64,000 nucleotides of DNA from Escherichia coli. Its GTDB lineage: Bacteria > Pseudomonadota > Gammaproteobacteria > Enterobacterales > Enterobacteriaceae. Each line of letters opens with the position of its first letter. Position 1 is the first letter of the stretch. Location of the stretch: the NCBI RefSeq assembly GCF_017348835.2, contig NZ_CP071375.1. One strand, 5' to 3'. The notes under the pieces are model-generated. The model was given only the letters and a program-made list of their open reading frames with translations. It was not told where the DNA came from and did no database searches. Both the position numbers and the translations under genes were made by a program. Below, one piece after another: positions 2,630 through 61,084 of the stretch.

Positions 2630-3438
2630 CGCAGTGCCTCCTGCGGTACGCTATCCCACCAGATGAGCGCCCAGTCGCGGCTGGCAGGGGCGAGGGCACG
2701 AGCATCTTGTTGTTGATACCAGCGATATAACCGCTCACGCTCATCGTCGTTAAGCGCGCCAAGACTCCAGCTGACGTTCTGCTCAAAACGTTCCCAGGTG
2801 CTGTTATCCTGTTGGCAATTTTGTCCACGGATAAAATCAACGTGGGCATAAATTCCCATCTGATACAGGACGTTGAGCGCAAAGATATAGTTGGGTAATT
2901 CGATCACTTCCCGACCAGCCGCCCGCTGAATGGCTGGAGAGACGAACGAGGTGCTGACCAGATGAGTCGTATAGACGCGAAGCCGTGCCTGATTATTCAG
3001 TTTGCTCATTGCCTGGCGCATATCAGCCACCAGAGTGGAGCGGGAAGCCACGGCAATATCGCAGCGTGGCAGGTCACTCCAGTCCTCTTCCCAGGCGCGC
3101 TGGATCCAGTGGACATTGTCTGCCTTCAGCGCGGCGGCGCGACGGGCGGCAACGTTCAGCATCCCCTGACTGTAATCAACGCCATAAATCGTCGTGAGTT
3201 TGTCAGCCAGCGCCAGCGATACGGTACCCGGTCCGCAGCCCATATCGAATAAGGTCTGAGCGCCTTGCAGGTCAATTTTAGAGATCAGTTGTTGCAGGTA
3301 GCTGTCCGTTGGCGAGGCGCAATTTTCCGCCATTTTCTCCGCCCGTTGATCCCAGTGATCGGGCGTTTTTTCTGTGCGGTGAGCCAGTTTGAGTTGCTGC
3401 AGATAAAGGTCTGCAAAATCAATATCATCAATGAGCAT
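2626..3438 (-). CDS. class I SAM-dependent methyltransferase
   Basis: 270 aa ORF with motif I LFDMGCGPGTVSLALA and downstream acidic motif YGVDYS. Confidence 0.7.
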   Translation of the reverse strand: MLIDDIDFADLYLQQLKLAHRTEKTPDHWDQRAEKMAENCASPTDSYLQQLISKIDLQGAQTLFDMGCGPGTVSLALADKLTTIYGVDYSQGMLNVAARRAAALKADNVHWIQRAWEEDWSDLPRCDIAVASRSTLVADMRQAMSKLNNQARLRVYTTHLVSTSFVSPAIQRAAGREVIELPNYIFALNVLYQMGIYAHVDFIRGQNCQQDNSTWERFEQNVSWSLGALNDDERERLYRWYQQQDARALAPASRDWALIWWDSVPQEALR

Positions 3439-3447
3439 GATTGTTCC

Positions 3448-4206
3448 TTAGCGGCTAATTGCAGAGAGGTGATGATGAATTTGGTCGGCAGAAACCCGAT
3501 ACAGGGCCGCCAGTTTGTTCGTTGTTAACTGTTCGGTCGGTAAGCCTTGTGTTACTCGTCCATCTGGCTCTACCTGGATAATGCTGTCGGCAATGGCGTT
3601 GGCATGGAGCGGATGGTGAGTCGACATTAACATTGTCATGCCGTTATTTTTGAGCTGCGCCAGCGTGTCCAGTAGTTGGATCTGATGACCGAAATCGAGG
3701 CTGGAGTCAGGCTCATCCAGTAACAACAAGCGCGGTTGCTGGACGAGTGCACGGGCGATTAAAGCCAGCTGACGTTCACCGCCGCTAAGCGTATTCCAGC
3801 GTCGTGCCGCCAGATGCAAAATACCCAGCTTTTCCAGTTGCTCCGTGGCTTTCAGGCGTTCTTGCTTACCGGGAACGGAAAAAGCGCCTATGGTGGGGGC
3901 CAGGCCCATCAACACCATATCCAGCAAACTAAAAGCAAAAATACCGTCGTGCGCCTGCGGCACCCAGGCAATAGCCTGCGCGCGCTGGCGATGGCTGAGT
4001 GTCTGCACAGGGAGGCTATCCAGTAAGACCTCGCCTTTTAATAACGGTATAACGCCAAGAATGGAGCGCATGAGTGTGGTTTTGCCGCAACCATTGGCTC
4101 CTAACAGACAACAAATTGTTCCTTGCGACAGGGTGAAGGACACGTCGCGTAGCACCGGATGGCGGGAGTAACCCAGAGACGCATGACGGACGGCAAGCAA
4201 AGTCAC
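3448..4206 (-). CDS. ABC transporter ATP-binding protein (metal-chelate type importer)
   Basis: Walker A GANGCGKTT, ABC signature LSGGERQ, Walker B LLLDEP. ORF track start at 4344 gives an N-terminal extension overlapping the permease; GTG at 4204-4206 overlaps permease stop (GTGA) and is the more likely start. Confidence 0.85.
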   Translation of the reverse strand: MTLLAVRHASLGYSRHPVLRDVSFTLSQGTICCLLGANGCGKTTLMRSILGVIPLLKGEVLLDSLPVQTLSHRQRAQAIAWVPQAHDGIFAFSLLDMVLMGLAPTIGAFSVPGKQERLKATEQLEKLGILHLAARRWNTLSGGERQLALIARALVQQPRLLLLDEPDSSLDFGHQIQLLDTLAQLKNNGMTMLMSTHHPLHANAIADSIIQVEPDGRVTQGLPTEQLTTNKLAALYRVSADQIHHHLSAISR

Positions 4207-17012: not shown

Positions 17013-17339
17013 ATGACTAAAAATACTCGTTTTTCCCCCGAAGTCCGTCAGCGGGCGATTCGTATGGTTCTGGAAAGTCAGGATGAATATGACTCACAGT
17101 GGGCGGCAATTTGTTCCATTGCCCCAAAGATTGGCTGTACGCCGGAGACTCTGCGTGTCTGGGTTCGCCAGCATGAGCGGGATACCGGGAGTGGTGATGG
17201 TGGACTCACCACCGCTGAACGTCAGCGTCTGAAAGAGCTGGAACGTGAAAATCGTGAACTGCGCCGCAGTAACGATATCCTTCGCCAGGCTTCCGCTTAT
17301 TTTGCGAAGGCGGAGTTCGACCGCCTCTGGAAAAAATAA
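17013..17339 (+). CDS. IS3-family transposase OrfA (HTH/leucine zipper)
   Basis: 108 aa [22 protein letters not shown]... recalled as IS629 OrfA; ends in A-rich slippery run ggaaaaaataa. Confidence 0.88.
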
Positions 17340-18226
17340 TGCCACTGCTGGATAAGCTGCGTGAGCAGTACGGGGTCGGACCGGTATGCAGCGAACTGCA
17401 TATTGCCCCGTCAACGTATTACCATTGTCAGCAACAGCGACATCATCCGGATAAACGCAGTGCCCGTGCGCAGCACGATGACTGGCTGAAGAAAGAGATA
17501 CAGCGCGTATACGATGAAAATCACCAGGTATACGGTGTGCGTAAAGTCTGGCGTCAGTTGTTACGGGAAGGTATCAGAGTGGCCAGATGCACTGTGGCAC
17601 GTCTCATGGCAGTTATGGGACTTGCCGGTGTTCTCCGGGGTAAAAAGGTCCGCACTACCGTCAGCCGGAAAGCCGTTGCCGCATGCGACCGCGTAAACCG
17701 TCAGTTCGTGGCAGAACGTCCAGACCAGTTGTGGGTGGCTGATTTTACCTGGGTAAGCACATGGCAGGGCTTCGTTTATGTGGCGTTCATCATTGATGTG
17801 TTCGCCGGATACATCGTGGGATGGCAGGTCTCATCATCCATGGAAACAACATTCGTGCTGGATGCACTGGAGCAGGCGTTGTGGGCCCGTCGGCCGTCCG
17901 GCACAATCCATCACAGTGATAAAGGTTCTCAGTATGTATCGCTGGCCTACACGCAGCGGCTTAAGGAAGCCGGATTACTGGCATCAACAGGGAGTACTGG
18001 CGACTCGTATGACAACGCGATGGCTGAGAGCATCAATGGTCTTTACAAAGCGGAGGTAATACACCGTAAGAGCTGGAAAAACCGTGCAGAAGTGGAACTG
18101 GCCACACTCACGTGGGTGGACTGGTATAACAATCGACGATTGCTGGAAAGGCTGGGCCATATTCCTCCGGCAGAAGCAGAAAAAGCTTATTATGCTTCCA
18201 TCGGAAATAATGATCTGGCAGCCTGA
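17339..18226 (+). CDS. IS3-family transposase OrfB (DDE catalytic domain), expressed as OrfAB by -1 frameshift
   Basis: 295 aa [15 protein letters not shown]... in -1 frame relative to OrfA; DDE-type motifs (HSDKGSQY, DNAMAES). Confidence 0.88.
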   Translation: MPLLDKLREQYGVGPVCSELHIAPSTYYHCQQQRHHPDKRSARAQHDDWLKKEIQRVYDENHQVYGVRKVWRQLLREGIRVARCTVARLMAVMGLAGVLRGKKVRTTVSRKAVAACDRVNRQFVAERPDQLWVADFTWVSTWQGFVYVAFIIDVFAGYIVGWQVSSSMETTFVLDALEQALWARRPSGTIHHSDKGSQYVSLAYTQRLKEAGLLASTGSTGDSYDNAMAESINGLYKAEVIHRKSWKNRAEVELATLTWVDWYNNRRLLERLGHIPPAEAEKAYYASIGNNDLAA

Positions 18227-18911
18227 GTTCACAGATAAAACACTCTCCAGGAAACCCGGGGCGGTTCACTTCTCTGAGAATAATTCTCTATTACCGGGCA
18301 AAATCAGGAACACAGGAATTAATATATATTTAACATCCCCCTTACAAAGGTGAGTTTATATCGAGTTATTCCCTAAGTTGTCGTTACTTATTCCAATTCG
18401 TTACTATGAATATGGCAAAAATATTACAACAAACAGCGGTTAAAAAATTTGGTGAAGATTTTTGTAATAATCCTAATTAGTTATGGGATTTTCGCTTGAT
18501 GTATCTGCATAACAAAAACAATATGCGCCATTTTTGCATTACTAATAAGAAAAAGCAAAAAACATCGATATTCATTTTTGGTCAATGGGTTTTCTGGCCT
18601 ATCGTTGTTATTGTGCTACTGGTTATCATTTTCATCTTGCCAGGATCGCACGTAATCACGTTATTCGGGGACTTTATCTGCGGGATATTACCCTTCAGGT
18701 AAGTCCTTTTCTCGCCAGCATATTGGAGCGTGATCAATATTGATCAGCTGTGAAGGGGGCTGATGTGTAGTGGAACAAAAACTGACGTTATATCACTGCT
18801 AATGAGATATCCGTCATCTGAACACTTATGTCTTTAATTATTTTGGTGGTCACTGTAGGCAATAAGCACAAAAGTGTAGGATGTTACAAGAATGATTAGG
18901 ACTCGGTGAAA

Positions 18912-18937
18912 TGAAAAATCCACGCAATTGCGTGGAT
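18912..18937 (-). terminator. rho-independent terminator downstream of ychF
   Basis: Hairpin atccacgc-aatt-gcgtggat (18918-18936) followed on minus strand by T-run. Confidence 0.6.
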
Positions 18938-18996
18938 TTTATATACTTTTGCGCTCTTCATGAGATTTAGCGAAACCTCATGAGACAATAAATTAA

Positions 18997-31360: not shown

Positions 31361-31895
31361 ACAAAAAAGGCCGCAGGCTGTTACCCTGCGGCCGGTTTCG
31401 GGCGCATATTGCCATCACGGCAGCCTGACGCCCGTTTTCGCCTTACTTCCGGTTACGCCACCAGCCGACAATCGCTGCGGTAATAATTCCCGCCAGGATC
31501 GGTGCTGCCAGGTCGTGCCAGAAAATCATGGCAAACTGCGCGAGCGTCATATAGCCGCCTTGTTGTAATGACAACATTTTGCGGCTATTCTTGAATTGTT
31601 GATGGTTCAAGATTAGCCCCCGTTCTGTTGTCAGGTTTTACCTCTCAACGTGCGGGGGTTTTCTCTTTCCAGCAACCAATGCCACCAGGGATAAAGCCCC
31701 CGCAACATTGCGCCTCACCGGATAACGCCGGCTTGGTGTGGATACTACGACTCAATTCATCTTCACTTCATCCCTGAAATGTTTGCAATGAAGAGTGCAT
31801 TCCGGTTTTTCAACAGCTGTTACAGTCGTTTCATGAGTGCTCTGGATGATGCTTCCAGCTCGGGTTGCCAATATTTACTTGTGGAAGTGATAAAG
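31361..31895 (-). repeat. LDR (long direct repeat) copy 1, ldr/rdl type I toxin-antitoxin unit (~535 bp)
   Basis: About 535-bp unit repeated in tandem (copy 2 begins 31896) with few mismatches; contains 35-aa Ldr ORF. Confidence 0.85.
31443..31550 (-). CDS. ldr: Ldr-family type I toxin peptide (35 aa)
   Basis: Minus-strand translation MTLAQFAMIFWHDLAAPILAGIITAAIVGWWRNRK; too short for ORF track; matches Ldr toxin family. Confidence 0.85.
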   Translation of the reverse strand: MTLAQFAMIFWHDLAAPILAGIITAAIVGWWRNRK

Positions 31896-32190
31896 ACAAA
31901 AATGGCCGCAGGCTGTTACCCCTGCGGCCGGTTTCGGGCGCATATTGCCATCACGGCAGCCTGACGCCCGTTTTCACCTTACTTCCGGTTACGCCACCAG
32001 CCGACAATCGCTGCGGTAATAATTCCCGCCAGGATCGGTGCCGCCAGGTCGTGCCAGAAAGTCATGGCAAACTGCGCGAGCGTCATATAGCCGCCTTGTT
32101 GTAATGACAACATTTTGCGGCTATTCTTGAAGTGTCTGGTTTCAAGATTAGCCCCCGTTCTGTTGTCAGGTTTTACCTCTCAACGTGCGG
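31896..32190 (-). repeat. LDR copy 2, proximal part (interrupted by IS4)
   Basis: Near-identical to 31361-31655; continues after IS4 at 33617. Confidence 0.85.
31979..32086 (-). CDS. ldr: Ldr-family type I toxin peptide (35 aa), copy 2
   Basis: Minus-strand translation MTLAQFAMTFWHDLAAPILAGIITAAIVGWWRNRK (I9T relative to copy 1). Confidence 0.85.
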   Translation of the reverse strand: MTLAQFAMTFWHDLAAPILAGIITAAIVGWWRNRK

Positions 32191-33616
32191 TAATGCCAGT
32201 CAGTTAAGCAACTGACTGGCTCTTTTTCGGGGCTGTGGGGTATTTCCAGGGCCTCTCCTTTACCACTCTCGGGAAGGCCCTTTCCCTTCTTGTCGGTAAT
32301 TTCACAAGTTGTCCCATACTTGCAAGATCGCGCATCAGCTCCGGTATACGTCCCGGTGAAGCGCCCTGCAATGTCATCAGCATTCTCATCACCATTCCGC
32401 ATGATTCTGAGAAGCTCAGTTGATTTGGCCAGTAACCTTTCAGATGTTCCGCCATTTTAATCATCTGATATCTCACCAGATTATAAGCCAGTAAGACACC
32501 CCACAGCTCTTGCTCCACAAGCTCAGGCTTTTTACTTCTCAGCGTCAGCCTGCTCAGTTGCATCGTCTGTTTTATCTCCCTGTATCCCAGTTCGATTTCC
32601 CAGCGATGACTGTACAGATCCGCCATTTCTCCTCCGGGGAAGCGCATGGCGTCCGTCATCGACGTCAGCAGATGGCAGACTTTTCCTTTGCGCGTCACGG
32701 TCAGCAGGCGGGCTGTCACCTCATTTCCCAGTCCCGGCCACTTTTTTCGTGCCTGCGGGCTGGTTTTCAGCTTCACCAGATGATCGCCTTTACCCAGTTT
32801 TCTGATCTCTTCATATTGCGCTCCCTTTCTGAGAGGGATCATCCAGTGGCGGTGTTCTCCCGCCAGGCTCCAGGCATTTAACAATCCCAGTGAGTAATAA
32901 CCTTTATCCATTAACGTCAGAGTGTTATCGCCGGTTTGTTCTATAAGTTGCTCAGCAAGCTCATTTTCGCTGTTCTTCATCGTGCCGAAGGCTGCAGCCG
33001 TCAGCAGATGGCTGGTCAGTTCCATCTGGCAGACCATTTTGACCTGCGGGTAGAGCGCCGGGGTCCCGGCATGTGTCTGGCGAGGGAAGGCTGCATCGTT
33101 CTCTGGTGTATCCGGTGTGCGCCAGAACACACCATCGATGGCCAGCAGGGTCAGGCCGCACCAGTGCGGATGCGGCGTGGCGTTATGCCAGAGCTGCGCT
33201 GTTTTCGTGAACACGCGGCGGACAGCCTCACTTCCCAGGCGCTGGCGGGCCTGAATAACAGCACTGGGGGCAACGAAGGTGCGATTGCCCGGCAGCATGA
33301 TGTCCAGGCGATTCACAATCTGGTGAAGAGGTTCTTTACGCTCAAGCGCCATGCCAACAATACACCAGACCATCATTTCGAGGGGAAGACGGCGCTTGCG
33401 TAGCGTTACAGTACCTGATTCGGCAAGGCAACGAGAGATGAGTTCGGGGTCGAGGTAATCTCCCAGAGAAGTCAGTGGGTTACGCAGAGAATCGTAACGG
33501 GATACCAGATCAAGAGCCTGTCCAATGTGCATAAAAAAATCCGGAAACGAGTGAGCGTTTCCGGATTCTTACACAGCCACTGGATCGGTCAACTGATCCT
33601 TAACTGATCGGCATTA
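32191..33616 (-). mobile_element. IS4-like insertion sequence, copy 1 (1426 bp)
   Basis: 18-bp imperfect terminal inverted repeats taatgccagtcagttaag / cttaactgatcggcatta; single 442-aa transposase; flanked by 12-bp direct repeats ctcaacgtgcgg (32179-32190 and 33617-33628). Confidence 0.9.
32204..33532 (-). CDS. IS4-family transposase (DDE)
   Basis: 442 aa [33 protein letters not shown]...; length and sequence consistent with IS4 transposase. Confidence 0.88.
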
Positions 33617-33795
33617 CTCAACGTGCGGGGGTTTTCTCTTTCCAGCAACCAATGCCACCAGGGATAAAGCCCCCGCAACATTGCGCCTCACCGGATAACG
33701 CCGGCTTGGTGTGGATACTACGTCTCAATTCATCTTCACTTCATCCCTGAAGTGTTTGCAATGAAGAGTACATTCCGGCTTTTCAACAGCTGTTG
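33617..33795 (-). repeat. LDR copy 2, distal part (ldr leader/promoter and rdl region) displaced by IS4
   Basis: Matches 31644-31825 of copy 1 then diverges. Confidence 0.8.
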
Positions 33796-49584: not shown

Positions 49585-49605
49585 GCGAATTTTAGTTCAC
49601 ATAGA

Positions 49606-49628
49606 CCCTGCTTCGGCGGGGTTTTTTT
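49606..49628 (+). terminator. rho-independent terminator after narI
   Basis: ccctgcttcggcgggg hairpin followed by ttttttt. Confidence 0.7.
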
Positions 49629-49644
49629 ATGGGCACGGTGCGGG

Positions 49645-49766: not shown

Positions 49767-49945
49767 ATGGTGGTGGGGGAAGGATTACTCAGCGCTGCGC
49801 GCTTCGCCCTTCGGGTCGTTGCCTGCGGCAACGCTCTCTCGCTGGCGCTCGAGTCGAACCTTGGTCGAAGCTTCTCGTCCTTCCCCGCTTGGGCAGAATA
49901 TTAATTTACGGATTCGCTTGAGAGTTCAGGTACTTTTGAAAGTGA
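49767..49945 (-). repeat. tyrT-distal repeat unit (about 179 bp) carrying a copy of the tRNA-Tyr 3' end
   Basis: tggtggtgggggaaggatt at 49767 repeats the tRNA 3' end found at 49946; spacing 179 bp; corresponds to the repeat family downstream of tyrT (rtT/tpr region). Confidence 0.6.
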
Positions 49946-50030
<85 letters not shown>

Positions 50031-50064
50031 AGGGGTAATTCAAATTTCGAGGTAATGCTTGAGA

Positions 50065-50149
<85 letters not shown>

Positions 50150-54947: not shown

Positions 54948-54984
54948 ATAGCTTATTCTTATTAAATTGTCTTAAACCGGACAA

Positions 54985-55012
54985 TAAAAAATCCCGCCGA
55001 TGGCGGGATTTT
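54985..55012 (-). terminator. rho-independent terminator after hns (potentially bidirectional)
   Basis: aaaaaatcccgccgatggcgggatttta: GC hairpin with A-run on one side and T-run on the other. Confidence 0.7.
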
Positions 55013-55035
55013 AAGCAAGTGCAATCTACAAAAGA

Positions 55036-56052: not shown

Positions 56053-56670
56053 ATGGCACAGCTATATTTCTACTATTCCGCAATGAATGCGGGTAAGTCT
56101 ACAGCATTGTTGCAATCTTCATACAATTACCAGGAACGCGGCATGCGCACTGTCGTATATACGGCAGAAATTGATGATCGCTTTGGTGCCGGGAAAGTCA
56201 GTTCGCGTATAGGTTTGTCATCGCCTGCAAAATTATTTAACCAAAATTCATCATTATTTGATGAGATTCGTGCGGAACATGAACAGCAGGCAATTCATTG
56301 CGTACTGGTTGATGAATGCCAGTTTTTAACCAGACAACAAGTATATGAATTATCGGAGGTTGTCGATCAACTCGATATACCCGTACTTTGTTATGGTTTA
56401 CGTACCGATTTTCGAGGTGAATTATTTATTGGCAGCCAATACTTACTGGCATGGTCCGACAAACTGGTTGAATTAAAAACCATCTGTTTTTGTGGCCGTA
56501 AAGCAAGCATGGTGCTGCGTCTTGATCAAGCAGGCAGACCTTATAACGAAGGTGAGCAGGTGGTTATTGGTGGTAATGAACGATACGTTTCTGTATGCCG
56601 TAAACACTATAAAGAGGCGTTACAAGTCGGCTCATTAACGGCTATTCAGGAAAGGCATCGCCACGACTAA
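56053..56670 (+). CDS. tdk: thymidine kinase
   Basis: 205 aa [30 protein letters not shown]...; matches Tdk. Confidence 0.95.
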
Positions 56671-56684
56671 TAAGAATTTCTTTA

Positions 56685-56727
56685 CTGACAGGGTGAGCAG
56701 GGCACTTTTATCCTGTCAGTTCGTTTT
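56685..56727 (+). terminator. candidate terminator after tdk
   Basis: Inverted repeat ctgacagg ... cctgtcag with 19-nt loop followed by ttcgtttt. Confidence 0.4.
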
Positions 56728-56941
56728 ACGCACTTCTTCCGGGCTATACACCCTTCTCGGCAGTTTTTTAACGCCGCTATACGCCTCACAGGGCTCTTAA
56801 GCACCGACGTTGACTTGTGACCTGTAAAGTACAGTATCCTGTGTTTAGGCGTTATACATCGTCGCAAATATGATGAAGGCTAATGCTGTCGGTTTATGGA
56901 AAAGTTGCTTTGGGTAAACAAAAAAACGGCCCCAGAAGGGG

Positions 56942-58367
56942 TAATGCCAGTCAGTTAAGCAACTGACTGGCTCTTTTTCGGGGCTGTGGGGTATTTCCAG
57001 GGCCTCTCCTTTACCACTCTCGGGAAGGCCCTTTCCCTTCTTGTCGGTAATTTCACAAGTTGTCCCATACTTGCAAGATCGCGCATCAGCTCCGGTATAC
57101 GTCCCGGTGAAGCGCCCTGCAATGTCATCAGCATTCTCATCACCATTCCGCATGATTCTGAGAAGCTCAGTTGATTTGGCCAGTAACCTTTCAGATGTTC
57201 CGCCATTTTAATCATCTGATATCTCACCAGATTATAAGCCAGTAAGACACCCCACAGCTCTTGCTCCACAAGCTCAGGCTTTTTACTTCTCAGCGTCAGC
57301 CTGCTCAGTTGCATCGTCTGTTTTATCTCCCTGTATCCCAGTTCGATTTCCCAGCGATGACTGTACAGATCCGCCATTTCTCCTCCGGGGAAGCGCATGG
57401 CGTCCGTCATCGACGTCAGCAGATGGCAGACTTTTCCTTTGCGCGTCACGGTCAGCAGGCGGGCTGTCACCTCATTTCCCAGTCCCGGCCACTTTTTTCG
57501 TGCCTGCGGGCTGGTTTTCAGCTTCACCAGATGATCGCCTTTACCCAGTTTTCTGATCTCTTCATATTGCGCTCCCTTTCTGAGAGGGATCATCCAGTGG
57601 CGGTGTTCTCCCGCCAGGCTCCAGGCATTTAACAATCCCAGTGAGTAATAACCTTTATCCATTAACGTCAGAGTGTTATCGCCGGTTTGTTCTATAAGTT
57701 GCTCAGCAAGCTCATTTTCGCTGTTCTTCATCGTGCCGAAGGCTGCAGCCGTCAGCAGATGGCTGGTCAGTTCCATCTGGCAGACCATTTTGACCTGCGG
57801 GTAGAGCGCCGGGGTCCCGGCATGTGTCTGGCGAGGGAAGGCTGCATCGTTCTCTGGTGTATCCGGTGTGCGCCAGAACACACCATCGATGGCCAGCAGG
57901 GTCAGGCCGCACCAGTGCGGATGCGGCGTGGCGTTATGCCAGAGCTGCGCTGTTTTCGTGAACACGCGGCGGACAGCCTCACTTCCCAGGCGCTGGCGGG
58001 CCTGAATAACAGCACTGGGGGCAACGAAGGTGCGATTGCCCGGCAGCATGATGTCCAGGCGATTCACAATCTGGTGAAGAGGTTCTTTACGCTCAAGCGC
58101 CATGCCAACAATACACCAGACCATCATTTCGAGGGGAAGACGGCGCTTGCGTAGCGTTACAGTACCTGATTCGGCAAGGCAACGAGAGATGAGTTCGGGG
58201 TCGAGGTAATCTCCCAGAGAAGTCAGTGGGTTACGCAGAGAATCGTAACGGGATACCAGATCAAGAGCCTGTCCAATGTGCATAAAAAAATCCGGAAACG
58301 AGTGAGCGTTTCCGGATTCTTACACAGCCACTGGATCGGTCAACTGATCCTTAACTGATCGGCATTA
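56942..58367 (-). mobile_element. IS4-like insertion sequence, copy 2 (1426 bp)
   Basis: Same terminal repeats and identical transposase ORF as copy 1; flanked by 12-bp direct repeats ccccagaagggg (56930-56941 and 58368-58379). Confidence 0.9.
56955..58283 (-). CDS. IS4-family transposase (DDE)
   Basis: 442 aa, identical in the ORF track to the 32204-33532 protein. Confidence 0.88.
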
Positions 58368-58408
58368 CCCCAGAAGGGGCCGTTTATGTTGCCAGACAGC
58401 GCTACTGA

Positions 58409-61084
58409 TTAAGCGGATTTTTTCGCTTTTTTCTCAGCTTTAGCCGGAGCGGCTTCTTTTTTCGCTGCAGTTTCACCTTCTACATAATCACGACCGTAGT
58501 AGGTATCCAGCAGAATCTGTTTCAGCTCGGAGATCAGCGGGTAACGCGGGTTAGCGCCGGTGCACTGGTCATCGAATGCATCTTCAGACAGTTTATCCAC
58601 GTTCGCCAGGAAGTCTGCTTCCTGAACGCCAGCTTCACGGATAGATTTCGGAATACCCAGTTCAGCCTTCAGCGTTTCCAGCCATGCCAGCAGTTTCTCG
58701 ATCTTAGCAGCAGTACGGTCGCCCGGTGCGCTCAGACCCAGGTGGTCGGCAATTTCAGCATAACGACGGCGAGCCTGCGGACGGTCATACTGGCTGAATG
58801 CAGTCTGCTTGGTCGGGTTGTCGTTCGCATTGTAGCGAATAACGTTACAAATCAGCAGGGCGTTTGCCAGACCGTGCGGAATATGGAACTGGGAACCCAG
58901 TTTGTGCGCCATTGAGTGACATACACCCAGGAAGGCGTTCGCAAACGCGATACCCGCGATAGTCGCTGCACTGTGAACACGTTCACGCGCTACCGGATTT
59001 TTAGACCCTTCGTGGTAGGACGCTGGCAGATATTCTTTCAGCAGTTTCAGTGCCTGCAGAGCCTGACCATCAGAGAACTCAGATGCCAGTACAGAAACAT
59101 AAGCTTCCATGGCGTGAGTTACTGCGTCCAGACCACCGAAAGCACACAGGGACTTCGGCATGTCCATAACCAGGTTGGCGTCGACAATCGCCATATCCGG
59201 GGTCAGTGCATAGTCCGCCAGCGGGTATTTCTGACCAGTAGCGTCGTCAGTTACAACCGCAAACGGAGTGACTTCAGAACCTGTACCAGAAGTGGTGGTG
59301 ACAGCGATCATTTTCGCTTTCACGCCCATTTTCGGGAACTTGTAGATACGTTTACGGATATCCATAAAGCGCAGCGCCAGCTCTTCGAAGTGAGTTTCCG
59401 GATGTTCGTACATAACCCACATGATCTTCGCGGCGTCCATCGGGGAACCACCACCCAGCGCGATAATCACGTCTGGTTTGAAGGAGTTTGCCAGTTCTGC
59501 ACCTTTACGAACGATGCTCAGGGTCGGGTCCGCTTCTACTTCGAAGAAGACTTCAGTTTCAACGCCTGCTGCTTTCAGTACGGAAGTGATCTGATCAGCA
59601 TAACCATTGTTGAACAGGAAGCGGTCAGTCACGATGAGCGCACGTTTGTGGCCATCAGTAATCACTTCATCCAGCGCGATTGGCAGGGAGCCACGGCGGA
59701 AGTAGATAGATTTCGGAAGTTTGTGCCACAACATGTTTTCAGCTCGCTTAGCAACGGTTTTCTTGTTGATCAGGTGTTTCGGACCAACGTTTTCAGAGAT
59801 GGAGTTACCACCCCAGGAACCACAACCCAGAGTCAGGGAAGGTGCGAGTTTGAAGTTATACAGGTCACCGATACCACCCTGAGAAGCCGGGGTGTTAATC
59901 AGGATACGAGCCGTTTTCATTTTCTGACCGAAGTAAGAAACGCGAGCCGGTTGGTTATCCTGGTCAGTGTACAGGCAAGAGGTATGACCGATACCACCCA
60001 TAGCAACCAGTTTCTCTGCTTTTTCTACCGCGTCTTCGAAATCTTTAGCGCGGTACATTGCCAGAGTCGGGGACAGTTTTTCATGTGCGAACGGTTCGCT
60101 TTCATCAACAACGGTCACTTCACCGATCAGAATCTTGGTGTTTTCTGGTACAGAGAAGCCTGCCAGTTCAGCAATTTTATAGGCTGGCTGACCAACGATA
60201 GCCGCGTTCAGCGCACCGTTTTTCAGGATAACGTCCTGAACAGCTTTCAGCTCTTTACCCTGCAACAGATAGCCGCCGTGGGTTGCGAAACGTTCACGTA
60301 CTGCGTCATAAACAGAGTCAACAACAACAACGGACTGTTCAGAAGCACAGATTACGCCGTTGTCGAAGGTTTTGGACATCAGTACAGATGCAACTGCACG
60401 TTTGATATCAGCAGTTTCATCAATAACAACTGGAGTGTTACCCGCGCCTACACCGATAGCTGGTTTACCGGAGCTGTATGCGGCTTTAACCATGCCCGGA
60501 CCACCAGTCGCGAGGATCAGGTTGATGTCTGGGTGGTGCATCAGTGCGTTAGAAAGTTCAACAGAAGGTTGATCGATCCAGCCGATCAGATCTTTCGGAG
60601 CACCGGCAGCGATAGCAGCCTGCAGAACGATATCAGCCGCTTTGTTGGTGGCATCTTTTGCACGCGGGTGCGGGGAGAAGATAATGGCGTTACGGGTCTT
60701 CAGACTGATCAGCGATTTGAAGATAGCAGTTGAAGTCGGGTTAGTGGTCGGAACGATACCGCAAATAATACCGATTGGTTCAGCGATAGTGATGGTACCA
60801 AAAGTGTCGTCTTCAGACAGAACACCACAGGTTTTTTCATCTTTATAGGCGTTGTAGATATATTCAGAAGCAAAGTGGTTTTTGATCACTTTATCTTCGA
60901 CGATACCCATGCCGGATTCGGCAACGGCCATTTTCGCGAGTGGGATTCGAGCATCTGCAGCAGCCAGAGCGGCGGCGCGGAAGATTTTGTCTACTTGCTC
61001 TTGAGTGAAACTGGCATATTCACGCTGGGCTTTTTTTACACGCTCTACGAGTGCGTTAAGTTCAGCGACATTAGTAACAGCCAT
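58409..61084 (-). CDS. adhE: bifunctional acetaldehyde-CoA/alcohol dehydrogenase
   Basis: 891 aa [42 protein letters not shown]...; matches AdhE. Confidence 0.97.

Follow-up and report, generated by a model that had tools for sequence, protein, structure and literature searches.

The window analysed here, a stretch of 64,000 nucleotides from Escherichia coli (contig NZ_CP071375.1 of assembly GCF_017348835.2), carries the convergent genes tdk, for thymidine kinase, and adhE, and between them an intact copy of the insertion sequence IS4 (Table 1). This copy is 100% identical to a second one in the window (32191-33616) and differs by 15 mismatches from IS4/insG of K-12 (NC_000913.3 4502090-4503515). 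Its features are those of the IS4 subgroup: it is nearly identical to the reference IS4 and its length falls within about 1.4-1.65 kb; both inverted repeats carry the -AATR ends of the subgroup (PMC2266710, Table 1 therein); a single unframeshifted gene encodes a DDE transposase with the DDE_Tnp_1 and IS4 N-terminal domains (PF01609 and PF13006, Pfam domains read from homologues of 95-99% identity); and the duplication on either side is exact and 12 bp long, the subgroup having 10-13 bp (PMC2266710). The identical gene of strain PE164 bears the PGAP name 'IS4-like element IS4 family transposase', and a search of 56-59 kb against Rfam gave no match. The insertion is a real feature, of a kind already known.

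Table 1. Features of the tdk-adhE region, in window coordinates.
Feature	Position	Strand	Remarks
tdk (thymidine kinase), convergent with adhE	56053..56670	+	ORF; RefSeq annotation of the identical PE164 region
tdk terminator region, 61 nt	56674..56734	+	identical to K-12 Term-seq entry 1294198(+)
Distal remnant of the adhE terminator: lower 3' stem half and U-tract (CCGTTTTTTT, adhE strand)	56920..56929	-	
Target-site duplication, tdk-side copy, CCCCAGAAGGGG	56930..56941	.	hairpin top and loop
IS4, intact, 1426 bp	56942..58367	-	transposase co-directional with adhE
Terminal inverted repeat, transposase-distal end, TAATGCCAGTCAGTTAAG	56942..56959	.	
IS4 distal-end hairpin, 11-bp stem, 4-nt loop, and TCTTTTT	56946..56978	+	top scanner match
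IS4 transposase ORF (InsG, 442 aa)	56955..58283	-	ORF list
IS4 5' hairpin (AAGAAUCCGGAAACG / CGUUUCCGGAUU) and U7 directly before the transposase AUG	58284..58321	-	predicted terminator
Promoter-like site: TTGACC, 16-nt spacer, TG, AAGAAT	58316..58343	-	consensus match only
Terminal inverted repeat, transposase-proximal end, CTTAACTGATCGGCATTA	58350..58367	.	
Target-site duplication, adhE-side copy, CCCCAGAAGGGG	58368..58379	.	exact direct repeat
Proximal remnant of the adhE terminator: lower 5' stem half (AAACGG, adhE strand)	58380..58385	-	
adhE, 891 aa	58409..61084	-	stop codon 23 nt from hairpin

The initial annotation had taken the target of this insertion to be the intrinsic-terminator hairpin of adhE, split by the element, and both natural alleles and folding agree. 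Removal of IS4 and one repeat restores AAAAAAACGGCCCCAGAAGGGGCCGTTT, the natural empty site of the O157:H7 strain Wll001 reads gggtaaacaaaaaaacggccccagaaggggccgtttatgttgcc, and 2200 of 5426 complete E. coli genomes have the uninterrupted allele, which is the same as the reconstruction; BL21 belongs to an empty-site lineage. A reconstructed site unable to form the hairpin would have contradicted the initial annotation, and this outcome did not arise. The empty site folds into a stem of 10 pairs (7 of them G-C) closed by a 4-nt loop, for which the calculated energy without flanking sequence is approximately -19.5 kcal/mol, and TTTTTTT follows on the adhE strand; in its 66-nt context the fold has a z-score of -4.1, with none of 200 shuffles folding as well. 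The pre-insertion site is, in short, a G+C-rich hairpin followed by a U-tract 23 nt past the adhE stop codon, as expected of an intrinsic terminator. In the empty allele, a consensus terminator scanner calls a terminator on the minus strand; in the window it makes no minus-strand call between 56000 and 59000. The element had also been placed exactly in the loop of this hairpin; the split stands, but the duplication comprises the loop together with the four uppermost stem pairs. Insertion would have copied this hairpin top to both sides of the element, and the native adhE terminator is destroyed because its lower stem halves and U-tract now lie 1.4 kb apart. Each junction retains a mini-hairpin of 5 pairs (-9.5 kcal/mol), without a U-tract on the adhE side.

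The same 12 bp have been occupied repeatedly. IS4 lies at the adhE terminator in the orientation of the window in 111 genomes and in the opposite orientation in 190, the duplication having been verified for the latter in strain H1827/12, and a distant relative, ISZ (insZ), holds the site in 1885 genomes including K-12. Decayed or deleted IS4 copies are found there in B2 strains such as NC101 and ATCC 11775, the deleted B2 type amounting to about 1040 genomes, an approximate figure obtained by subtraction; a direct query returned 1501, an overcount because IS4 copies at other loci with a coverage of exactly 80% were included. Overall, an IS4-type element lies behind adhE in about 59% of E. coli genomes. 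The two orientations of IS4, together with ISZ, rule out a single ancient insertion inherited vertically.

The target preference of IS4 was derived from non-redundant flanks of the element in E. coli, Kosakonia, Photorhabdus and metagenomes, 65 on the left and 36 on the right; all belong to surviving insertions, so that selection contributes in part to the pattern. Their consensus reads A-tract, SSS, a duplicated and often palindromic 12-bp core, SSS, T-tract. In the left arm A occurs at 52-86% over positions -21 to -16, with a peak of 86% at -18, and in the right arm T occurs at 81-86% over +16 to +18 and at 64-67% over +19 to +20; within the core, C predominates at -12 and -9 and G at -4 and -1, at 57-86%. 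The adhE site was left out when a PWM was trained on these flanks; applied to the IS-free window (122,178 positions), this PWM ranks the adhE terminator first and second, in the exact register, with 24.3 and 23.4 bits, the mean being -16 (sd 7.1). The next predicted target in the window is the galU/hns terminator, and the pheST attenuator terminator is the second-best PWM site within 6.5 kb. Because both the flank consensus and the PWM single out the adhE terminator, the placement of IS4 is not coincidental.

We consider it highly probable that IS4 at adhE is an ordinary intact copy residing in a preferred target, and that the hairpins of the element largely replace the terminator it interrupted; the literature counted in support of this explanation includes De Palmenaer et al. 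According to this model, IS4 would make cuts staggered by 12 bp and centred on the dyad of the site, preferring an A-tract, three G/C positions, a G+C-rich and often palindromic 12-bp core, three further G/C positions and a T-tract, a layout shared with intrinsic terminators that act in both directions. With the sequence AAAAAAA-CGG-CCCCAGAAGGGG-CCG-TTT, the adhE terminator would be a near-perfect match and, as such, a recurrent hotspot. The native adhE hairpin does not itself qualify as a bidirectional terminator that also serves tdk: its plus-strand tail is only TTTATGTT, for which the scanner makes no call, and tdk has a terminator of its own.

Folding indicates that the question of whether other IS4 sites centre on hairpins, raised by the initial annotation, has a positive answer: in 9 of the 11 sites that can be fully reconstructed a hairpin is centred on the duplication. 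Such folds, and a complementarity within sites above that expected from the consensus alone, would also fit the idea that IS4 recognises a DNA structure, either an extruded cruciform or a single-stranded hairpin, rather than a double-stranded consensus, and that terminators are hit as palindromes. In this regard, the outer four bases at each end are perfectly complementary in 16% of duplications, compared with 4.5% for halves exchanged among sites and 0.4% for the window background. We nonetheless regard structure recognition as unlikely. IS4 also uses clearly non-palindromic sites, namely that of K-12 insG (ATCTTGGTTCTG; off consensus, with a PWM score of 11 bits), that of the first IS4 copy in the window (CTCAACGTGCGG; off consensus, at only 5-8 bits) and several in Kosakonia. 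The strongest signal, moreover, lies in the fixed A/T-arm positions, as expected of a symmetric transposase dimer acting on a bendable duplex, and the excess of palindromy may be a by-product, since sequences fitting both arms come, within genomes, mainly from real terminators.

Transcripts of adhE had been expected to enter the 3' end of IS4; the transposase ORF lies, however, on the minus strand, as does adhE, and entry is at the 5' end. There, 47-84 nt inside IS4, the adhE strand encodes a hairpin of 12-15 bp (about -22 kcal/mol; -22.4) followed by U7, and in an extended fold the transposase AUG is paired as well. The hairpin, U-run and AUG are conserved in relatives at 67-86% amino acid identity, with compensatory substitutions that were judged from per-sequence folds and inspection, as indels in loops and bulges shift the column register; these relatives also occupy A-tract/palindrome/T-tract sites. 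The simple terminator scanner makes no call at the IS4 5' hairpin, for which folding energies and analogy provide the support; in our reading, it is missed because A/U pairing lengthens the stem into the U-run. The promoter-like site, whose -10 overlaps the 5' arm of this hairpin, is a candidate transposase promoter.

The analogy is drawn from K-12, where ISZ occupies the same site and where a strong Term-seq 3' end, 1295324(-), falls at the hairpin and U-run of ISZ downstream of adhE with 50,000-100,000 reads in all three conditions, the curated set holding no minus-strand 3' end between the adhE stop codon and the ISZ hairpin (PMC7815308, supplementary file 1). Its position, strand and abundance point to 1295324(-) as the 3' end of adhE in K-12. 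In the strain of the window, we infer that adhE RNA ends at the IS4 5' hairpin: transcripts would continue for about 50 nt into IS4 and mostly stop at the hairpin and U7 just 5' of the transposase AUG, which would give adhE a 3' UTR of roughly 125 nt, compared with about 50 nt without the element.

At the other end of IS4, the distal-end hairpin folds at -19.9 kcal/mol and faces inward, as a terminator of transcription coming from the direction of tdk. It coincides with a K-12 Term-seq 3' end, 4502127(+), which corresponds to IS4 position 38 and window position 56979 (PMC7815308, supplementary file 1). Both ends of the element have an inward-facing hairpin followed by a U-run, and this second terminator, together with the first, would allow IS4 largely to restore the lost termination and to shield its transposase from host read-through. 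The tdk side had likewise been thought to suffer read-through. The effect is marginal, however, because tdk has its own terminator with an in vivo 3' end in K-12: it is 100% conserved and lies about 200 bp upstream of the insertion, with a scanner match at 56697-56716 and the K-12 Term-seq 3' end corresponding to window position 56724, about 54 nt past the tdk stop codon. Plus-strand transcripts reading beyond it would also meet the distal-end hairpin and T-run of IS4, itself a 3' end in vivo in K-12.

The initial annotation was right in that adhE has lost its terminator, but read-through is predicted to halt at the IS4 5' hairpin. The alternative, in which adhE transcription goes unterminated and extends deep into IS4, or across it in the direction of tdk, altering the fate of adhE mRNA, driving transposase expression and producing RNA antisense to tdk, appears quite improbable to us. 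The mini-hairpin left at the adhE-side junction and the silence of the scanner on the minus strand would be in line with it, and some leakage into the co-directional transposase gene is indeed likely, intrinsic terminators being rarely 100% efficient. Far read-through past the IS4 5' hairpin is nonetheless unlikely in view of the energy of that hairpin and its U7 on the adhE strand, of the compensatory changes that preserve it in relatives and of the strong ISZ-hairpin end as the sole curated minus-strand 3' end downstream of adhE in K-12; the corrected orientation of IS4 also speaks against it.

It is very improbable, finally, that IS4 inserts widely and that only harmless insertions, for instance in terminators between convergent genes, persist: although all flanks analysed come from extant copies and an insertion into an intergenic terminator of this kind would plausibly cost little, survivorship leaves unexplained both the nucleotide-exact phasing (A peak at -18, T peak at +18, duplication always centred on the dyad) and the re-use of an identical 12 bp by IS4 in both orientations and by ISZ, and work from 1979-84 reportedly found IS4, under selection, at a single galT site and in the pheST attenuator.

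Beyond this locus, we tentatively propose that elements of the IS4 subgroup may home to sites resembling bidirectional terminators, destroy the hairpin and supply inward-facing terminators at both ends. If true, such a replacement would restore 3'-end formation of the flanking genes and insulate the transposase; insertions would be nearly neutral, which would explain why about 59% of genomes tolerate an element behind the highly expressed adhE, and terminator replacement by IS4-type elements would neatly illustrate how a transposon can lower its cost to the host. The target consensus of IS4 goes back to the 1980s; we found no earlier statement that links it to functional IS-borne terminators as an adaptation reducing the cost of insertion.

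The importance for the locus itself is low, as the insertion is annotated in RefSeq and most E. coli have an interrupted hairpin, among them K-12, in which adhE expression has been studied for decades. In constructs and models derived from K-12, the 'adhE terminator' is in all likelihood an IS-borne hairpin about 120 nt past the stop codon, and the native hairpin goes unused. As a hotspot of IS4 and ISZ, the tdk-adhE spacer has several alleles (empty, IS4 in two orientations, deleted IS4, ISZ), which offer a useful lineage marker and are a source of assembly breaks. In addition, the preference of IS4 is captured by a simple matrix, with which terminators at risk can be predicted.

Among known systems, IS4 (insG) of K-12 is the same element, with the same inverted repeats, 442-aa transposase and 12-bp duplication, and differs only in location, lying in the yjgZ-nanX intergenic region rather than at the adhE terminator. 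The ISZ/insZ pseudogene between tdk and adhE of K-12 is the experimentally characterised analogue, by Term-seq, of IS4 at adhE: it interrupts the same terminator hairpin about the same dyad, its transposase is co-directional with adhE and a hairpin and U-run directly precede the ATG. It is nevertheless a separate, decayed element of about 988 bp, listed as the non-transposing 'ISZ, IS4-like' (PMC5009759), with a protein about 31% identical to InsG. Its DNA resembles IS4 only in the last 34 bp, and its duplication is of 10 bp (CCCAGAAGGG) instead of 12 bp.

A precedent for insertion into a terminator is the IS4 copy that Mayaux et al. reportedly described in Gene in 1984 in the pheST attenuator terminator, with the target consensus AAA-N20-TTT, to which the K-12 insG site also conforms; this insertion is said to have abolished the attenuator and raised downstream expression. 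Both there and at adhE, IS4 lies in an intrinsic-terminator hairpin between A and T runs. The adhE hairpin, however, is a 3'-end terminator between convergent genes, and for that reason no downstream gene is derepressed. Within the IS4 family, IS231A, according to what Hallet is said to have reported in 1994, targets GGG(N)5CCC with A/T-rich bent flanks. The target of IS186, likewise of the IS231 subgroup, is the palindrome GGGG(N6/N7)CCCC (PMC5009759). These elements share with IS4 the symmetric G+C palindrome and a duplicated core centred on the dyad, but have other core sequences and duplication lengths. In the IS4 consensus, A and T tracts in fixed phase come in addition, and it is owing to these that it coincides with terminators.

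Specific insertion into extragenic palindromes is also known for IS1397, ISKpn1, IS621, ISPpu9/10 and ISRm22, the last a member of the IS4 family (PMC1525189). Palindromic targets are common to these elements and IS4, but theirs are REP repeats and not unique terminators, and some rely on other transposase chemistries. With respect to the protection of the transposase, the genes of IS10 and IS50 are guarded from outside transcription by fold-back inhibition. In these elements, a structure formed only in transcripts started outside blocks transposase expression, and the counterpart in IS4 would be the -10-like hexamer overlapping the 5' arm of its hairpin and the AUG paired in the extended fold. 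What distinguishes the IS4 and ISZ structures from a purely translational block is the additional U-run, and the ISZ 5' and IS4 distal-end hairpins behave as terminators in vivo.

Our analysis identifies the element lying between tdk and adhE as IS4 itself, every defining feature tested being present in it. It is 100% identical to copy 1, the other IS4 of the window, and differs from K-12 IS4/insG at 15 positions. Pfam domains PF01609 and PF13006 are found on close homologues of its ORF, and strain PE164, which matches both junctions at 100%, carries an identical gene named 'IS4-like element IS4 family transposase' by PGAP. The gene order, galU-hns-tdk-IS-adhE, lies in the species E. coli, with ldr/rdl repeats 25 kb upstream.

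Features of the tdk-adhE insertion and of other loci in the window
Feature	Position	Strand	Description
IS4 copy 2	56942-58367		1426 bp; terminal inverted repeats TAATGCCAGTCAGTTAAG and CTTAACTGATCGGCATTA
IS4 transposase ORF	56955-58283	minus	single ORF, 442 aa
Target duplication	56930-41 and 58368-79		exact 12-bp direct repeats CCCCAGAAGGGG
adhE	58409-61084	minus
IS4 5' hairpin	58321-58284	adhE strand	AAGAAUCCGGAAACG-CUCACU-CGUUUCCGGAUU, then U7, then AUG
IS4 distal-end hairpin	56946-56978		top terminator-like match of the scanner
Promoter-like site	58343-58316		consensus match only
IS4 copy 1	32191-33616		duplication CTCAACGTGCGG; within locus 31599-33628
rdlD (Rfam), intact	31599-31664
rdlD (Rfam), truncated	32134-32194
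Ldr toxin ORF	31979-32113	minus	intact
Candidate IS4 landing sites	54982-55017, 49596-49631, 18910-18945, 61004-61039		next-best matrix matches, 16-19 bits
ALIL pseudoknot (Rfam)	17294-17410		frameshift element of IS3-family insertion sequences
RtT RNA (Rfam)	49768-50149		adjoins two tRNA genes (tyrTV region)

Removal of the IS and one repeat from the window yields ...GGGTAAACAAAAAAACGGCCCCAGAAGGGGCCGTTTATGTTGCC, which is the natural sequence of O157:H7 Wll001. This empty site folds into a hairpin of 10 pairs with a 4-nt loop (-19.5 kcal/mol); in its 66-nt context the fold has z = -4.1, and 0 of 200 shuffles fold as well. Seven T follow on the adhE strand, the adhE stop codon lies 23 nt before the hairpin, and a consensus scanner predicts a terminator on the minus strand of the empty allele and none at the hairpin position in the window. 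These results bear out the initial annotation as to the IS boundaries, the 12-bp repeat, the reconstructed hairpin and its nature as the predicted intrinsic terminator of adhE. The insertion had also been placed exactly in the loop: it is indeed centred there, but the duplicated part takes in the four uppermost stem pairs as well as the loop. Each junction thus retains a weak mini-hairpin of -9.5 kcal/mol, lacking a U-tract on the adhE side, and the lower stem halves and U7 now lie 1.4 kb apart.

The split terminator is the majority state in E. coli. Among 5426 complete genomes (80% coverage criterion), the site is uninterrupted in 2200, whereas 1885, K-12 MG1655 included, carry ISZ (the insZ pseudogene), 111 an intact IS4 junction in the orientation of the window and 190 an IS4 in the opposite one; by subtraction, about 1040 remain, mostly with a B2-type allele (NC101, type strain ATCC 11775) whose IS4 is 97-99% identical and lacks positions 174-443. 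The same 12-bp repeat borders both sides of the opposite-orientation IS4 (1426 bp) in H1827/12; ISZ, with a duplication of 10 bp (CCCAGAAGGG), is centred on this dyad too. Two IS4 orientations together with ISZ imply at least three independent events at this hairpin, contradicting a single ancient insertion.

As for ISZ itself, the K-12 copy (2802-3789 of locus L001) is 97% identical to IS4 over its last 34 bp, the transposase-proximal end; elsewhere in the element no DNA similarity to IS4 is detectable, and protein identity is about 31%. Selection conserving the ends, or conversion between ISZ and IS4, could possibly account for this likeness. Near nanM, O157:H7 N8B7-2 has another ISZ-like remnant, truncated and about 92% identical to K-12 ISZ (L005, 2526-3290); its right end is deleted and its left flank, aaggtccctcagaaacac, resembles that of the adhE site, a hint that ISZ may share the target preference of IS4.

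Since adhE and the transposase gene are both on the minus strand, adhE read-through would enter IS4 at its transposase-proximal end, and not at the 3' end as had been proposed. There it would meet the IS4 5' hairpin (-22.4 kcal/mol; an extended fold pairs the AUG too). The hairpin, U-run and AUG are retained in IS4 relatives of 67-86% amino acid identity (Pantoea, Pectobacterium, metagenomes), with compensatory changes from AAACG/CGUUU to AAAUG/CAUUU, GGAAA/UUUCC to GGGAA/UUCCC and AAUCC/GGAUU to GAUCC/GGAUC. The hairpin that ISZ carries in the same place is unrelated in sequence: ACGGCUUCC-ACAACA-GGGAGCCGU-UUUCUU-AUG (-16.5 kcal/mol). In this regard, the curated K-12 Term-seq 3' ends (Adams et al., 2021; PMC7815308, supplementary file 1) include a minus-strand end at 1295324 that is strong under every one of the three growth conditions (51,499 to 100,225 reads). 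It coincides with the U-run of the ISZ hairpin; the adhE stop is 122 nt upstream, the insZ ATG follows 2 nt later, and the interval back to adhE contains no other curated end. In the same data, a plus-strand end at 4502127 corresponds to position 38 of K-12 IS4, directly after GCCAGTCAGTTAAGCAACTGACTGGCTCTTTTT, the distal-end hairpin. The K-12 ends at both hairpins thus indicate that IS4-type elements carry inward-facing terminators.

We infer that adhE transcription in K-12 ends at the ISZ-borne terminator, the RNA with its 3' end at 1295324 being presumably an adhE transcript. By analogy, adhE RNA in the window strain would end near 58284-58287, with a predicted 3' UTR of about 125 nt, as against about 50 nt. 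Extensive run-through of adhE transcripts into IS4, as initially envisaged, is possible for a minor fraction, but the hairpin and U7 before the ATG argue against it as the main fate. The -10 of the promoter-like consensus match overlaps the 5' arm of this hairpin, which suggests that the transcript of IS4 itself would start inside the hairpin and so escape it. The predicted effect on tdk is not upheld: tdk has a K-12 3' end of its own, 1294198(+), located in a hairpin/T-run 54 nt beyond its stop codon, and this 61-nt sequence is identical in the window (56674-56734), so that tdk is independent of the split hairpin.

Centring on a hairpin is a property of IS4 and not a peculiarity of the adhE locus. 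Flanks were drawn from species-representative genomes (Kosakonia oryziphila with 16 copies at contig ends, Photorhabdus with one), metagenome contigs and E. coli loci fetched earlier, and near-duplicates were collapsed to 65 left and 36 right flanks, a sample of surviving insertions. Their pattern is strong and symmetric: A reaches 52-86% at -21 to -16 (maximum 86% at -18), G/C occupies -15 to -13 and +13 to +15, within the 12-bp duplicated core, -12, -10 and -9 are C and -4 and -1 are G, and T reaches 81-86% over +16 to +18, then 64-67% over +19 to +20. Palindromic duplications are common (for example CTGCAAATGCAG, GGCCAGATGGCC and CGACAAACGTCG), with the outer four bases perfectly complementary in 16%, versus 4.5% of half-swapped controls and 0.4% of background. 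The check on other sites that had been suggested proves positive, as a hairpin is centred on the duplication in 9 of the 11 sites having both flanks and a clean duplication. A position weight matrix built from these flanks, the adhE site and copy 1 left out, gives its two highest scores in the IS-free window (122,178 positions) to the two strands of the adhE terminator, both in the precise register that the insertion occupies (24.3 and 23.4 bits; mean -16, sd 7.1). On a 6.5 kb sequence, its second-best site is the pheST attenuator terminator, and the K-12 insG site reads AAA-N20-TTT. In 1984, Mayaux et al. reportedly obtained target data agreeing with both.

Structure-specific recognition of cruciforms by IS4 would fit palindromic targets and is conceivable, but some sites are plainly not palindromes, and these, like the A/T arms at fixed positions, speak against it. 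Survivorship alone cannot explain the pattern, leaving unaccounted for both its nucleotide-exact phasing and the recurrent occupation of one and the same 12 bp. The IS4 relatives of 67-86% identity are also placed in A-tract/palindrome/T-tract sites.

Several further loci deserve mention. The next-best matrix matches in the window are candidate landing sites, among them the galU-hns hairpin (AAAAAATCCCGCCGATGGCGGGATTTT). Copy 1, a poor consensus match (5-8 bits) common to only 3 of the 5426 genomes, lies in an ldr/rdl type I toxin-antitoxin repeat and interrupts an rdl antitoxin sRNA gene within the arm of its 3' terminator, with GGG-TTTT after the duplication and the Ldr ORF intact beside it. 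Kosakonia oryziphila REICA_142 has at least 16 IS4 ends at contig ends, which marks an expansion of IS4 beyond Escherichia; in almost all right flanks the 12-bp core is followed by 2-4 nt and a T-run. Nine of 20 two-ended metagenome copies lack a duplication (L026, L042, L061, L072, L080, L090, L095, L116, L135; L116 apparently has the same duplication with a 2-bp shift), and each of their flanks, taken singly, looks like half of a terminator site. The mismatch between the flanks stems either from genome rearrangement through IS4-IS4 recombination or from contigs that are chimeric across the repeat. A 265-bp contig of Methylobacterium mesophilicum NBRC 15688 (NZ_BPQU01000128.1) joins an IS4 end to the exact K-12 insG flank (ATCTTGGTTCTGgtgtttgtaacaaac...) and probably stems from E. 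coli K-12 DNA contaminating the assembly. The ALIL pseudoknot points to another IS near 17.3 kb.

Taken together, the finding is already known, since the element is IS4, its target behaviour is published, public genomes carry an annotation of the tdk-adhE insertion locus and the equivalent ISZ insertion has always been present in K-12. We consider it possible, at no more than moderate probability, that IS4-type elements combine terminator-seeking with built-in replacement terminators, the one idea perhaps not explicitly stated before. The behaviour described here fits the published target specificity of IS4, IS186 and IS231A, De Palmenaer et al. being cited on IS4 target choice and IS186, an IS4 relative, using the palindromic target GGGG(N6/N7)CCCC (PMC5009759), and it recalls the way in which IS10 and IS50 classically shield their transposase genes from outside transcription.
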